Of a DNA stretch of 32,000 nt, positions 23,589 to 30,981 are shown piece by piece (the first letter of the stretch is position 1; each line of letters opens with the position of its first letter). This DNA comes from Acinetobacter bereziniae (GTDB lineage: Bacteria > Pseudomonadota > Gammaproteobacteria > Pseudomonadales > Moraxellaceae): positions 30,500 to 62,499 of the forward strand of contig WNDP01000005.1 of NCBI GenBank assembly GCA_009912575.1, written 5' to 3'. The notes under the pieces were generated by a model, which worked only from the letters and a program-made list of their open reading frames with translations, was not told the origin of the DNA and ran no database searches. The translations under genes and the position numbers were made by a program.

Positions 23589-23663
23589 TCAAATTAATGT
23601 TTATCAGACTTGATCACCATATAGATAGGCTAAGGTAGTTCGTGATCCAAACGTGTTAATCAT

Positions 23664-23720
23664 GTGGACGTTAAAAAACTAACGTCCAAACTCAAATGGA
23701 CGTTAATAAATTAACTTCCA
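23664..23720. repeat. two adjacent palindromes built on TGGACGTTAA half-sites
   Basis: TGGACGTTA (23664-72) / TAACGTCCA (23680-88), and TGGACGTTAA (23697-706) / TTAACTTCCA (23711-20, one mismatch). Confidence 0.6.
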
Positions 23721-23731
23721 GTTAGCGCAGG

Positions 23732-23759
23732 ATTTTGCATAACGAATATTATGTTACTT
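23732..23759 (+). other. dif-like XerC/XerD site L1 (ATTTTGCATAA-CGAATA-TTATGTTACTT)
   Basis: 10/11 XerC-arm and 9/11 XerD-arm matches to ATTTCGCATAA-N6-TTATGTTAAAT. Confidence 0.7.
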
Positions 23760-23765
23760 AACTTG

Positions 23766-23846
23766 CTCTCCAGGACAAATTATCCTGGTCTAGATTTGTC
23801 CTGGAGAGTTGTACAAACATTTATTAATCCTGGCTGCGCCAGGATT
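23766..23846. repeat. left att spacer: two hairpins
   Basis: Perfect 15-bp stem CTCTCCAGGACAAAT (23766-80) / ATTTGTCCTGGAGAG (23794-808). Perfect 9-bp stem AATCCTGGC (23826-34) / GCCAGGATT (23838-46). Confidence 0.75.
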
Positions 23847-23872
23847 TTAGGGTGTGCAATCTCTGACGAGTT

Positions 23873-23901
23873 ATTTAACATAAAATGAAGTTATGCGACT
23901 T
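23873..23901 (-). other. dif-like site L2, inverted relative to L1
   Basis: Plus strand reads ATTTAACATAA-AATGAAG-TTATGCGACTT. The XerD arm is 11/11 canonical and the XerC arm 9/11, with a 7-nt centre instead of 6. Confidence 0.65.
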
Positions 23902-24150
23902 CAGAATGACATAAAGTTGAAAGTTATGATTGATTATAGATTTGAAGGAAAAAAAAGAGTTGGTGGGGCTACAATTGGTATTACAGCATCAAAGGGAAGA
24001 GATGGTCTTTATACGATTTATGGTGGAATGTATGATTTAGATGCTGTTCCAACATCTAAATTATTAGGATCTAATATAAAAACTATTGATCAAATTAAAT
24101 ATGAAGCAAAATTATTTTTTAATTTATCGAAAATAGAAGATATTTCTTAA
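23893..24150 (+). CDS. hypothetical protein (prophage left-end orphan)
   Basis: 85-aa ORF followed by a strong terminator. No recognisable motif. The start may be the internal ATG (MIDYRFEGKK...). The first ATG lies inside dif-like site L2. Confidence 0.45.
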   Translation: MRLQNDIKLKVMIDYRFEGKKRVGGATIGITASKGRDGLYTIYGGMYDLDAVPTSKLLGSNIKTIDQIKYEAKLFFNLSKIEDIS

Positions 24151-24156
24151 TTTAAA

Positions 24157-24187
24157 AAGAGTCCACGTTTTTTAATGGTGGACTCTT
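24157..24187. terminator. bidirectional terminator AAGAGTCCAC-N11-GTGGACTCTT
   Basis: Perfect 10-bp stem with a T-rich loop/flank, between convergent ORFs 23893-24150 and 24204-24473. Confidence 0.7.
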
Positions 24188-24203
24188 GTACCATAATGGT
24201 ATT

Positions 24204-24473
24204 TTATTCAACCTGACGTCCTTTATATTGTTCATTTGGATAAAGTTTTCGCCATGATTTGTCTGAGCGTTCCCAAATAGCATTTCCTTCAGTTAATTTA
24301 CGAAATTCTTTTAAAACACTTTTAGAAATTGCTAAATTTCCATTGTCATTTTGATAGACAAAAGTTTTTCCAAATAATTTAGCAATTGAGTACACTGCTT
24401 GTTCTTGATAAAGGCGACCTAATTTATCTAGTTGCTCCTTCATCCAATTCGCTACGTCTATTTCTGTTGTCAT
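24204..24473 (-). CDS. hypothetical protein, second gene of the repressor operon
   Basis: 89 aa, starting 24 nt downstream of the RHH gene on the same strand. Basic C-terminus. No motif recognised with confidence. Confidence 0.6.
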   Translation of the reverse strand: MTTEIDVANWMKEQLDKLGRLYQEQAVYSIAKLFGKTFVYQNDNGNLAISKSVLKEFRKLTEGNAIWERSDKSWRKLYPNEQYKGRQVE

Positions 24474-24497
24474 TTTATACCTGTTAAAAATGTTAAT

Positions 24498-24689
24498 TTA
24501 TTTGGGAATAATTACATTCCCACTTGCACCAACTTCAATAAATTCAATGCCTTGCTCAATTAGAATATGAACAAGTTCACTATCTCTAATTGGCTGTTGT
24601 CCTTTCTGAATAAGTATTTTATTCAATTCAACAGCCTTCTTTCTCAAGGCTTCTTGCTCTTGATCGTTCAGGCGAACACTTTGAACCAT
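24498..24689 (-). CDS. ribbon-helix-helix (CopG/Arc-like) putative phage repressor
   Basis: The ORF track extends to 24806, but GGAG sits 8 nt before the ATG at 24689. The 63-aa product MVQSVRLNDQEQEALRKKAVELNKIL...IRDSELVHILIEQG fits a beta-strand/helix/helix RHH pattern. Divergent from the replication module, like rstR in CTXphi. Confidence 0.6.
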   Translation of the reverse strand: MVQSVRLNDQEQEALRKKAVELNKILIQKGQQPIRDSELVHILIEQGIEFIEVGASGNVIIPK

Positions 24690-24704
24690 CTTTAAATCTC
24701 CATA

Positions 24705-28899: not shown

Positions 28900-28985
28900 A
28901 ACAGCTATTGCGAAAGAGGACGAAGCATGAGGACGATTGAGCAATTGGCTTGTGGTTATTTTAATTGGTTTGATGAGTTTGTATT

Positions 28986-30011
28986 ATGCTTACATTGATT
29001 ACAGCGACTCCAGGTTCAGGCAAAACACTAAAGGCATTATCCATTATCTTTGATTTTCTTAATGATGGCCGCAATGTTTGGACAAATATTGATGGGATTA
29101 AAATATCAGGTGTTAGAACATTCAAAAATGATCATGTTGATCCTTTTGATTGGCGTAAACTAGATGACGGTTCAGTTGTTATTTACGATGAAGCACAAAA
29201 GCATCCTGCCTTTGCAAAAAAAGATATGCTAAAAAAATATCCAAAGGATAGGGCTGAGGAAATTGCTGATATTGCATGGGATTTGGACTATCATCGTCAT
29301 AATGGTTATGACATTGTATTGATTACACAATCACCTAAATTACTTAATCAACAAACATTAGATTTTGTTGGTGAGCATTTACATCTAAGACGTATCTTTG
29401 GAGCAAAACAGGCAGCAATTTTTCACTTTCCTGAACATAAACTGAATCCTAATACTAAATCTGTACGTGATGAAGCCATTAACAAAGAGACTTTTGTATT
29501 TCCTAAACACTTATTTAAATTTTATAAATCAGCAACTTTGCATACACATAAAACTCATATACCAATGAAATACATCATTATTCTATTAATAGTATTCGTT
29601 GGTATTCCTGCATATGGTTATTCAAAGTATAAGCAATCAAAGTTATTTAATGATGAAAATAAATTAGTTGAACAATTAAAGGATGAAAAACCTATCGAAC
29701 AACATAAGAATCCTGAAACAATTAAGCATGAAGTAAAATCAGAATCTGTTAATATGGAACAACAAGAGCAATCTCGAATTGCCATGATTATAGATTCATC
29801 AACAGATTGTTATGCCAAAAATTCGTATGGTGAAATTATTGATATAACCATTAATGAGTGTAGAAATTTATCCAATAAAAATAGTCGAATGTCATTTTCT
29901 CATTATCAGAGAGAAAAAGCATTAGAACTATCTGCTACGAATTTTGATCAAAATCCTAGCGAAAACTCAGTTAGTTATACGCCACCATCGTATCCTGATA
30001 AATATTTATAA
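28986..30011 (+). CDS. zot: Zot / pI-like assembly ATPase
   Basis: 341 aa. N-terminal Walker A TATPGSGKT, Walker B-like VVIYDEAQ, a single TM (YIIILLIVFVGIPAYGY) near residue 205 and a periplasmic C-terminal domain. Confidence 0.88.
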   Translation: MLTLITATPGSGKTLKALSIIFDFLNDGRNVWTNIDGIKISGVRTFKNDHVDPFDWRKLDDGSVVIYDEAQKHPAFAKKDMLKKYPKDRAEEIADIAWDLDYHRHNGYDIVLITQSPKLLNQQTLDFVGEHLHLRRIFGAKQAAIFHFPEHKLNPNTKSVRDEAINKETFVFPKHLFKFYKSATLHTHKTHIPMKYIIILLIVFVGIPAYGYSKYKQSKLFNDENKLVEQLKDEKPIEQHKNPETIKHEVKSESVNMEQQEQSRIAMIIDSSTDCYAKNSYGEIIDITINECRNLSNKNSRMSFSHYQREKALELSATNFDQNPSENSVSYTPPSYPDKYL

Positions 30012-30126
30012 CCATACATATCGTCACAAATAAAATTAAAATAAGTTTTATCATATAGTTAGGTGAATATGATAACCATACATATTGTCGCATTTAGTCA
30101 TGACTAAAAAAGAAGGAGAGGAAATA

Positions 30127-30345
30127 ATGTTTAAATTTATTGGAATTACATTAGTTACCACATCGATATTACTTGTAGGCTGTGGTAAAAATTCTGAACA
30201 AAAAGAATTAGAAATACGTCAAGAACGCGCAGCTCAAAAAGGCAATGGATTAGACAATTTCGACCCCGATAAACCCGAAAAAACTAATCAGCAGCATAAA
30301 ACCAATAATGGTTTGGATAGCTTTAATCCTGATAAAAAACAGTGA
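30127..30345 (+). CDS. small lipoprotein with internal repeat (prophage cargo position)
   Basis: AAGGAG 8 nt before the ATG at 30127. Lipobox LLVGC. NGLDNFDPDK and NGLDSFNPDK repeats. The ORF track starts at 30085, but the RBS favours 30127. Confidence 0.6.
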   Translation: MFKFIGITLVTTSILLVGCGKNSEQKELEIRQERAAQKGNGLDNFDPDKPEKTNQQHKTNNGLDSFNPDKKQ

Positions 30346-30492
30346 AATTGAGCTGCTTAAAGGCATAAAATTGTATAAAACACATCAATCTATGATTGAT
30401 AGGGTTTTAACAATTATAGTGGCTTAAGTAGCAAGCAAGGACTGAAATTTTTTATTTCTTAATGAAAATAACAGACGCGCTAGGTTGAATAT

Positions 30493-30699
30493 ATGCGATA
30501 TAAGCGCTCAATTGGTGCAATGCGTAAAGAAGATTGGCAGCAACTTATTGAAATGTTAGATGAGTATCTGTTTTTTGTTCAACAAGACAATAGTGCAAGC
30601 AATGATAAAATTAATGATGTAAAACTTTTGATTCATAAACTACAACAACATATAGATGGACCAGTACAGCAAAGTTATAGTTTTAATCGTTGGTCATAA
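30493..30699 (+). CDS. hypothetical protein
   Basis: 68-aa helical-looking ORF followed by a hairpin at 30706-30733. No motif recognised. Confidence 0.45.
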   Translation: MRYKRSIGAMRKEDWQQLIEMLDEYLFFVQQDNSASNDKINDVKLLIHKLQQHIDGPVQQSYSFNRWS

Positions 30700-30705
30700 T
30701 TTTAA

Positions 30706-30733
30706 TTTCCCGCAACCTATAATATGCGGGAAA
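30706..30733 (+). terminator. stem-loop TTTCCCGCA-N10-TGCGGGAAA
   Basis: Perfect 9-bp stem 7 nt after the stop of 30493-30699. First of a series of hairpins in the phage intergenic region. Confidence 0.45.
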
Positions 30734-30785
30734 CGATAGGCGATATTTGCCTCATGTACCCAGACATTGAAGCCATAGCCACGCA

Positions 30786-30816
30786 GACTTGCGTAGGCTC
30801 GACTAATACGCAAGTC
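30786..30816. repeat. hairpin GACTTGCGTA-N11-TACGCAAGTC in phage intergenic region
   Basis: Perfect 10-bp inverted repeat. Candidate origin or packaging-signal structure. Confidence 0.5.
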
Positions 30817-30830
30817 GAGTAGCGATCTGA

Positions 30831-30858
30831 TTTCTGCATAACTTATATTATGTTCATT
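30831..30858 (+). other. dif-like XerC/XerD site R1 (TTTCTGCATAA-CTTATA-TTATGTTCATT)
   Basis: 8/11 and 9/11 arm matches to canonical dif. Closely resembles L1 (shared TGCATAAC..ATATTATGTT). Confidence 0.65.
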
Positions 30859-30864
30859 AGGATA

Positions 30865-30940
30865 CTCAGTAACGTGATGTATAATCGCAGATCATCACGT
30901 TACTGAGCTGTAGCTACAAACAGTGTTGTGTAGGCTACAG
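30865..30940. repeat. right att spacer: two hairpins
   Basis: 16-bp stem CTCAGTAACGTGATGT (30865-80) / ACATCACGTTACTGAG (30892-907). CTGTAGC (30908-14) / GCTACAG (30934-40). TGTAGCTACA at 30909-18 is itself palindromic. Confidence 0.75.
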
Positions 30941-30953
30941 TCTTAGATATCTT

Positions 30954-30981
30954 ATTTAACATAATATACATTATGCGAAAT
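30954..30981 (-). other. dif: canonical chromosome dimer resolution site dif
   Basis: The reverse complement reads ATTTCGCATAA-TGTATA-TTATGTTAAAT. It is identical to E. coli dif at 25 of 28 positions, and all three differences are in the outer XerC arm. Confidence 0.85.

Follow-up and report, generated by a model that had tools for sequence, protein, structure and literature searches.

A 32,000-nucleotide stretch of DNA from Acinetobacter bereziniae (GenBank assembly GCA_009912575.1, contig WNDP01000005.1, positions 30,500 to 62,499 of the forward strand), hereafter the window, was analyzed for the filamentous phage (inovirus) genes towards its right end. Positions 23884-30964 form a 7081-nt unit that is an apparently intact inovirus prophage without a recombinase of its own, inserted at the dif (dimer-resolution) site in the chromosome of an A. 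bereziniae-like host (Table 1), and its junctions point to an exchange at the XerD arm of that site.

Table 1. Features in and around the prophage, by position in the window
Feature	Position	Strand	Evidence and remarks
TonB-dependent receptor gene, 5'-truncated	21444-23596	-	syntenic with relatives as far as 23596
Junction DNA	23597-23731	.	two near-identical palindromes TGGACGTTAAAAAACTAACGTCCA; no match in any fetched locus
Site 1, dif-like	23732-23759	+	ATTTTGCATAA CGAATA TTATGTTACTT; site-3 equivalent of the remnant
Loop A of the remnant	23760-23872	+	two hairpins; three-way junction with sites 1 and 2
Site 2, left prophage junction (attL)	23873-23901	-	on the + strand: XerD arm ATTTAACATAA, spacer AATGAAG (7 nt), XerC-like arm TTATGCGACTT
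85-aa open reading frame (ORF) in the variable cargo slot beside site 2	23893-24150	+	no family assignment
Terminator-like hairpin, bidirectional	24154-24193	.	AAGAGTCCAC...GTGGACTCTT; closes the cargo slot
DUF6953 protein, 89 aa	24204-24473	-	PF22266 E 1.1e-28; phrog_10782
63-aa candidate regulator	24498-24689	-	phrog_5642; Acinetobacter-specific family
Divergent intergenic region	24690-24847	.	three TGCATGCA palindromes at 24744, 24759 and 24802
Small conserved gene upstream of rep	24809-25096	+	phrog_20873 E 1.7e-47
Rep_trans/RstA-like rolling-circle initiator, 483 aa	25098-26549	+	PF02486 E 5.7e-22; phrog_453 E 1.8e-105, nearly full length
Hairpin inside rep	25425-25446	+	CCCCCAATTTATAATATGGGGG; candidate Rep nick or termination site
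OB-fold single-stranded DNA-binding protein, 95 aa (predicted)	26539-26826	+	overlaps rep; phrog_4994; structure model
61-aa protein with C-terminal hydrophobic helix	26927-27112	+	phrog_13391 E 9e-32; weak match to phrog_4644 'tail protein'
Major coat precursor (Coat_B)	27123-27344	+	PF05356 E 2.4e-6; phrog_18198 E 4e-45
pIII-like adsorption protein, 408 aa	27388-28614	+	P/N-rich linker; TspB-type C-terminal anchor, NF041109 E 2e-16
pVI-like minor coat (DUF2523)	28618-28899	+	E 1.5e-15
Zot/pI assembly ATPase, one transmembrane segment	28986-30011	+	PF05707 E 2.1e-16; phrog_197 E 9e-54
Small lipoprotein, accessory	30127-30345	+	lipobox LVGC; signal region like SA0632 lipoproteins, below cut-off
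Conserved 68-aa protein	30493-30699	+	phrog_13740 E 3e-40
Hairpin downstream of the 68-aa gene	30709-30730	+	CCCGCAACCTATAATATGCGGG; candidate (+) origin nick site
Site 3, phage dif-like	30831-30858	+	TTTCTGCATAA CTTATA TTATGTTCATT; with site 2 makes up the inverted pair of the free genome
Loop B, core of the folded attP(+)	30859-30953	+	two hairpins and a short helix
Chromosomal dif, right prophage junction	30954-30981	-	ATTTCGCATAA TGTATA TTATGTTAAAT
Host LysR regulator	31278-32000	-	C-terminal 240 aa in the window; conserved right flank of dif

Prophage genes and the dif site

Gene calls were checked by profile searches of Pfam, PHROG (phrog_ families), NCBIfam and PADLOC, and selected proteins were modelled with AlphaFold2 (AF2) and compared with the PDB by fold search. 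A first-pass annotation, made from the sequence alone, had read a one-strand inovirus module at this locus. The genes that it named were present where it had placed them and most had profile support, including Rep_trans, Zot and DUF2523, for which it had proposed such searches. The major coat gene, which it called a textbook precoat, scored 27.9 bits against a PF05356 cut-off of 23.5 and encodes a signal peptide, a hydrophobic core and a basic tail. The C-terminus of the pIII-like protein matched the TspB C-terminal domain. The gene described as G5P-like does overlap rep, and its AF2 model (26 homologues, mean model confidence pLDDT 90.8) is an all-beta oligonucleotide-binding (OB) fold whose best PDB matches were bacterial SSB and PriB, at E ~1e-3 and TM 0.45-0.55. 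The model gives moderate support to a plausible role in binding single-stranded DNA (ssDNA) as a functional analogue of the gene V protein, the protein not being demonstrably a member of the Ff g5p family. Out of two micro-genes reported to follow, the 61-aa gene has family support and is a candidate minor coat gene of the pVII/pIX type, and the 30-aa ORF at 26823-26915 has none. The latter contains a CxxC...HxxxxC pattern with weak zinc-finger-like Pfam matches, all below cut-off, is not annotated as a gene in the A. baumannii copies and is probably not a real gene.

A divergent ribbon-helix-helix (RHH) repressor operon had also been proposed. The minus-strand genes for the 63-aa and DUF6953 proteins are there. 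The AF2 model of the 63-aa protein (pLDDT 86.8) has an extended N-terminus, two helices and a small C-terminal hairpin, a shape compatible with an RHH fold, and a fold search of the PDB returned no significant match to it, which leaves the RHH label unproven. Sequence searches of the PDB with the 95-aa and 63-aa candidates returned nothing useful. The palindromes in the divergent intergenic region are candidate operators, and the region may hold the promoters as well. For the small gene upstream of rep the likely start is the ATG at 24848, giving the 82 aa that are annotated in A. baumannii and A. haemolyticus. The 68-aa gene near the right end has ~90% nucleotide identity in relatives.

By profile search, neither the prophage ORFs nor any others in the window had a domain of an integrase, transposase or secretin, as the first-pass annotation had stated of the element for integrase and the pIV secretin, and no recombinase domain (integrase, transposase or resolvase) was matched within 23873-30981. 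No ORF matched DUF3653/XafT in Pfam or NCBIfam, profiles that distant analogues could escape. PADLOC and NCBIfam had nothing for the small ORFs, no profile library searched matched the 85-aa ORF at 23893-24150, and scanning the window for Rfam families and tRNAs gave no hit. As dif-like sites flank a prophage that has no recombinase, the reliance on host XerCD suggested earlier is the natural reading of the sequence.

The site at 30954-30981 is the chromosomal dif, next to which the prophage had been placed from the start. It is a perfect match to the dif pattern, for which 0.03 sites per window are expected by chance. Five phage-free genomes (L052-L056) share the arrangement of the LysR gene followed ~300 nt downstream by ATTTCGCATAA TGTATA TTATGTTAAAT, with a central region of TATATA in L054, and thereby provide the comparison with an unoccupied site that had been called for. 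In A. bereziniae GCA_001500155.3 (L056) dif lies at ~2.2285 Mb of a 4.435-Mb contig, that is at 50%, and the dif sites that end phage arrays in A. baumannii CP033869 and A. haemolyticus CP038009 lie at 51-53% of the chromosome. Finally, the cumulative GC skew of the window levels off near the prophage. Both window flanks are chromosomal in relatives, being syntenic with contigs of 2.9-4.4 Mb, and over its left part the window has 94-96% identity to A. bereziniae LMG 1003. An origin of the whole region as a plasmid or plasmid dif (pdif) module, prompted by the alternating orientation of its sites, was ruled out by these flanks. The phage-free genomes, which come from A. bereziniae-like strains, retain the last 35 nt of the phage loop (corresponding to window 30919-30953) beside dif, on its XerD side, but have lost site 3 and the first hairpin; past these 35 nt the strains differ from one another. 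These loop ends look like scars of earlier elements.

The left flank has been rearranged. In four related species (L001-L004) the intact receptor has 727 aa and starts MYNPSPMRHAFKVHPLVLSMALTIP, and every alignment to the window stops at 23596, 8 nt before the ATG of the receptor ORF. By comparison the window copy lacks the first ~17 codons, which encode the signal peptide, together with a Fur-box-like promoter, and is probably a pseudogene made by rearrangement at 23596. Through a deletion or, less likely, an assembly join, the truncated gene now abuts the tail end of an older element that had integrated at dif. No dif-like site was found within 10 kb of the receptor gene in any of 17 Acinetobacter loci. 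This ruled out a dif beside that gene as the empty site and exposed the rearrangement, and the right LysR flank was used for comparison instead. Other A. bereziniae strains carry a 4.7-kb DUF4145 ... HipA block between dif and the neighbouring LysR297 gene, without the receptor gene; the terminus region is highly plastic. A second TonB-dependent receptor (15370-17308) is split into ORFs of 530 and 130 aa, with ~247 nt missing near 16950 in the alignment to L001, and the ORF of a major facilitator superfamily (MFS) transporter at 19306-20343 has 345 aa against 450 aa in relatives. Both are likely further pseudogenes near the terminus.

Junctions and the attachment region

The window holds two inverted pairs of dif-like sites, namely sites 1 and 2, 113 nt apart, and site 3 and dif, 95 nt apart. 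Site 1 was matched best (94.7%) by positions 7743-7780 of locus L049, which are the site-3-type end sequence of a different phage lineage, and for this reason 23597-23872 is read from its sequence as the remnant of an earlier occupant of that other lineage, with 23597-23731 probably the tail of the older element. The left boundary of the first-pass annotation was consequently ~290 nt too far to the left, taking in DNA that belongs to this remnant. The insertion is bounded by dif-like sites, lies at the chromosomal dif and has regenerated it, which is the pattern that characterizes integrative mobile elements that exploit Xer (IMEX).

In E. coli dif, XerC binds the left arm and XerD binds TTATGTTAAAT; the arms of all sites were assigned by homology with this arrangement, XerC left and XerD right. 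Site 2 thus combines a perfect XerD arm with a divergent XerC arm and an unrelated 7-nt spacer. In order to locate the crossover, all ATTTAACATAA arms were tabulated in the loci of relatives, comprising IMG/VR loci with a Rep 84-97% identical, complete A. baumannii genomes and A. haemolyticus. Out of 39 such sites 37 could be classified. The 7-nt spacer was joined to TTATGCGACTT in every one of its 20 occurrences (9 with a non-phage upstream flank, 11 with the phage loop upstream), and a TATAYA spacer was joined to a non-phage XerC arm in all of its 17 (12 right junctions of prophages or arrays and the 5 phage-free genomes). Hybrid junctions, with a host XerC arm and the phage spacer, were found at 0 of the 37 classifiable sites. 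It is this hybrid that an exchange on the XerC side, as in CTXphi and VGJphi, predicts (PMC4246890), and a XerC-type crossover of either the CTX or the VGJ kind was ruled out by the junction sequences.

The order of sites was equally regular. Site 3 was present and nearly invariant in all relatives, always inverted, and was followed ~94 nt later by site 2, at junctions between two phages or a phage and a satellite, or, where the array stops on the right, by the host dif. On the left every array began with site 2, and site 2 was identical at every left end and every phage-phage junction; it also occurs on Acinetobacter plasmids. Left flanks were specific to the host or the remnant up to the first base of ATTTAACATAA. 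As the XerD arm is the only sequence common to both recombining sites, the crossover maps at or in that arm. Read from these sequences, the exchange is a XerD-side one, and the regenerated dif has the prophage next to its XerD arm. The junction deduced for a circular or tandem form is ...GATATCTT-ATTTAACATAA/AATGAAG-TTATGCGACTT, in which window position 30964 is joined to 23884. No circular copy or terminal redundancy of a close relative was found among the relatives. A more distant phage, L047 (IMGVR_UViG_3300032220_001230, Rep identity 54%), has a 123-nt exact terminal repeat and hence a circular genome of 6824 nt, with dif-like sites 4.2 kb apart and thus a different layout of attachment (att) sites.

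The free attP was reconstituted by joining window 30828-30964 to 23884-23905. As ssDNA its (+) strand is predicted to fold into a three-way junction with a free energy (dG) of -34.7 kcal/mol and a z-score of -7.8. The basal stem, in which site 3 pairs with site 2, begins with the inner positions of the XerC arm, goes on through five pairs of the central region, where one G is bulged, and an A:A mismatch adjoining the XerD arm, and finishes with seven pairs in that arm. The same fold was obtained for the remnant pair of sites 1 and 2 with loop A (dG -36.2 kcal/mol, z -7.05), the loop sequence of which is unrelated, and a copy on plasmid pGX5 gave the same shape from different hairpin sequences (z -6.0). 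An alignment of 11 att regions showed compensatory changes at five pairs of the inner hairpins.

The strand packaged by inoviruses is the coding-sense strand. Read in this sense, site 2 corresponds to a dif-like bottom strand, the one that XerD cuts. Once such a cut was made, the central TATA of the dif bottom strand is a perfect complement of the XerD-side end of the site 3 central region (...TATA), where the phage's own strand leaves the A:A mismatch, and forward exchange is therefore favoured. We put the odds that ssDNA is the substrate of integration at roughly even.

Integration model and its alternatives

We consider it probable that this is an apparently intact inovirus prophage of the IMEX kind, integrated through a folded (+) attP by XerD-side exchange under host XerCD and replicated from Rep nicks. 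The free genome would have an attachment region in which a structured loop of 94 nt separates site 3 from site 2. As part of the packaged (+) strand this region would form the three-way junction, the basal stem of which would mimic a dif duplex with a XerC-like arm, a central region and a XerD arm. Host XerCD, with XerD as the putative catalyst, would swap strands at the boundary of the XerD arm and the central region, such that the XerC-like arm and 7-nt spacer of the phage end up at the left (site 2) and, on the right, site 3 and its loop are followed at once by a regenerated but unchanged dif with the host XerC arm and TGTATA. New arrivals would insert beside dif and arrays would grow on the XerD-arm side, the remnant at 23597-23872 being what an earlier occupant has left behind. 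In rolling-circle replication Rep_trans would nick the TATAATATG loops of the hairpins at 30709-30730 and 25425-25446, and export, if the prophage is active today, would need a host secretin. The process would amount to integration of a single strand in the manner of CTXphi, except that XerC and XerD trade roles.

Several observations weigh against this model. The free attP was deduced from tandem junctions and not from a circular genome, and with the left flank rearranged the exact empty site of this strain is not available for comparison. The first base after the XerD arm is A in the phage and T in dif, and one of the ligations would accordingly face an A:A mismatch. XerD normally needs FtsK or an activator of the XafT type, and profiles found no DUF3653 protein. 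In addition, the prophage is the last unit before dif and has no downstream nick site. Release of a complete genome by rolling-circle synthesis as in CTXphi is therefore not expected, and excision by Xer between site 2 and dif would be required.

The crossover itself maps to site 2 only, and a double-stranded replicative form might integrate through that site alone, in a XerD-first reaction like that of TLCphi activated by FtsK or an unrecognized factor. Site 3 and the loop would then lie beside attP, not within it, and serve as minus-strand origin or packaging signal, functions for which structured hairpins are typical in Ff phages and to which the att hairpins bear a resemblance. We regard this as unlikely, though a serious contender. 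Site 3 is a full dif-like site of the near invariance, fixed orientation and spacing given above and pairs arm for arm with site 2, and this pairing recurs in the remnant as well as in a plasmid module without rep, to which a phage origin would be of no use. Furthermore, no XafT homologue was found, and the 7-nt spacer and heterologous central region make a complete two-step reaction unlikely. A classical CTXphi-type reaction, with XerC exchange at the XerC-arm boundary of the folded hairpin and resolution of the junction by replication, is suggested by the inverted dif-like pair ~90 nt apart and by the Rep_trans/Zot gene order (PMC4246890). It would however leave a host XerC arm joined to the phage central region and a split site 3, whereas in all junctions examined site 3 is intact and the hybrid is missing, and the prophage sits on the XerD-arm side of dif; we hold it to be almost certainly wrong.

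Homologous recombination through the ~48 nt (35 nt and the XerD arm) common to the phage loop and the dif flank of phage-free strains was considered since L052-L056 do carry the same 35 nt beside dif. In both the window and A. baumannii, however, the left-junction sequence upstream of that arm does not resemble the phage loop and only 11-13 nt are common, which makes this route very improbable. A different matter is whether the element still moves. A fixed, cryptic prophage kept for its cargo would fit its place as last unit before dif with no nick site downstream, the decayed elements and pseudogenes that fill its neighbourhood and the rearranged left flank. Yet all core genes are full length against their profiles, and close relatives in several species and tandem arrays imply recent movement. 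A. baumannii filamentous phages moreover make virions (PMC11209303), the membership of these Af phages in the window lineage not having been shown. We therefore doubt that the prophage is immobile, while giving the idea some weight.

Relatives, satellites and known systems

The prophage is a member of a widespread and already catalogued Acinetobacter inovirus lineage. Near-identical prophages occur in IMG/VR and in many A. baumannii genomes; the 95-aa protein is 98% identical in A. baumannii, where it was found on 126 contigs of complete genomes. A megablast of the prophage against GenBank phages returned no match, and the closest named phages by protein have a Rep only ~30-34% identical. Look-ups of exact sequence with the TonB receptor, Rep, Zot and a 46-aa ORF of the flank had no hit. 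The remark in the first-pass annotation that filamentous Acinetobacter phages are barely characterized was overstated. CRAphi, a phage of A. baylyi, binds type IV pili, as PMC12378983 cites it from Renda 2016, and A. baumannii has yielded isolates of the Af phages (PMC11209303, PMC12285184). Among the groups that the Af work defined in silico are some 'flanked by' genes for Rep and regulators, which form tandems and 'probably' use XerCD, and these groups match the lineage of the window. Af phages share with the window prophage the genus and the gene set (Zot, CoaB, TspB-type CoaA and Rep), and differ in that Af1 carries an IS110-type transposase. The Af papers make no mention of attP and contain no analysis of att sites, crossover side, folded attP or satellites, and no analysis of these att sites was found in the Xer/IMEX literature searched. 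The integration geometry, the 1.9-kb satellites and the plasmid copy of the att module appear to be undescribed.

The earlier comparison with CTXphi, the cholera-toxin phage of Vibrio cholerae, holds in part, the attachment sites of the two looking like mirror images. Both phages have an RstA-like Rep_trans, small coat genes and Zot and lack integrase and secretin; both have an attP of two inverted dif-like sites ~90 nt apart that folds in the (+) strand; and in both dif is regenerated and tandem arrays are allowed. In contrast to CTXphi, where exchange takes place at the XerC-arm boundary, the window junctions show exchange at the XerD-arm boundary, with a perfect XerD arm and a 7-nt spacer in the exchanged site and the prophage on the XerD-arm side of dif. 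The Rep proteins are only ~25-30% identical and the window prophage has no toxin genes. Elements of the TLCphi/XafT type resemble it in that its junctions are as would be expected of XerD exchange and in that rep-only satellites share the att system. They differ in that the window has no DUF3653/XafT match and in that the TLCphi attP has a degenerate XerD arm with a dif-like XerC arm and central region, which is not the case for site 2; the window attP has a non-dif central region of 7 nt instead of 6 and a second, inverted site. VGJphi-type phages have a single double-stranded attP exchanged by XerC, whereas the window has two sites and XerC hybrids are absent. As in pdif modules, XerC/XerD sites in inverse orientation enclose the segment from site 2 to site 3, but it is chromosomal, 7 kb long and a complete phage, while pdif modules are segments of plasmids and ordinary ones have no structured loop and no known circular form. 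When the V. cholerae IMEX classes (PMC4246890, PMC9226527) and the gonococcal island (PMC6744903) were compared for the side of the element, CTXphi, VGJphi, TLCphi and the island all came out, by our own derivation, on the XerC-arm side of dif.

Some A. baumannii genomes have another, inverted inovirus on the XerC-arm side of the same dif (L059 14812-16288, L060 15902-16288, L037 8533-11197). Its initiator is a different Rep_trans or a Phage_CRI/G2P protein, and the outer XerC-arm bases beside it are GCTT and not TGTT, as a XerC-type integrant would give. Two classes of element may thus flank one dif.

Mini-elements of 1.9-2.9 kb were found in dif arrays of A. baumannii (L057-L062) and A. haemolyticus (L063, CP038009.1 5769-10944) and at L039, L040 and L049, with IMG/VR loci among the carriers. 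They consist of the regulatory module, the 82-aa gene, which all of them have, a truncated rep and the att region, and the A. haemolyticus array holds two of them and no full phage. Their internal junction, CAACCCCCAATTTATAATATG/CGGGAAACG, lies inside the TATAATATG loop common to both hairpins. Such satellites would be the product expected of rolling-circle synthesis from one candidate nick site to the other, similar to the way CTXphi arrays make hybrid genomes by rolling circle between two origins.

The cargo slot, adjoining site 2 and the 63-aa regulator, varies from copy to copy, holding AbiTii, HTH_39, DUF4145/HEPN, or DUF6953 with an 85/86-aa ORF (L064, a Logan SRR22406946 contig, L063 and L054-L056). 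Directly beside site 2, where the window has the 85-aa ORF, relatives have DUF4145/HEPN, AbiTii or HTH_39 genes, a content which suggests that the elements carry defence or addiction genes. The hairpin at 24154-24193 is 90-92% identical in L035, L036, L041 and L046, directly 3' of their cargo gene.

Site 2 and its first ~20 nt (window 23871-23920) are 94-100% identical to sites on 11 Acinetobacter plasmids. In the A. towneri plasmid pGX5 (L035, NZ_CP071769.1) positions 6003-7025 form a complete rep-less unit that runs from site 2 through a DUF4145/HEPN gene, the conserved terminator and a site of the site-3 type to a 91-nt loop and the plasmid pdif (central TATTGA). Such a unit may connect the att regions of phages with the 'dif modules' of plasmids. 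The unit of site 2 ... site 3 and loop thus flanks 1.9-kb rep-truncated satellites as well as rep-less cargo modules (DUF4145/HEPN, or AbiTii in related contigs), and occurs both at the chromosomal dif and at plasmid pdif sites. A more speculative reading, which we consider improbable as it stands, is that an inverted-pair att region with XerD-side exchange is a general mobility device of Acinetobacter beyond phages, and the missing mechanism and evolutionary source of 'dif modules'. If true, it could explain the movement and origin of those modules, which are bounded by inverse pdif sites.

The phage lineage is not new; the integration geometry read from its sequences would be a new variant of the IMEX theme. 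If confirmed, an element on the XerD-arm side with a CTX-like folded attP would add to the ways in which Xer is known to be hijacked, and one would have to ask what activates XerD in place of FtsK or XafT. Also of weight, if confirmed, would be the making of 1.9-kb satellites by this lineage through Rep acting at two nick hairpins. The att unit found on plasmids around a defence-like gene would suggest a way, open to testing, by which pdif modules move; in Acinetobacter these modules carry carbapenemase and other resistance genes.

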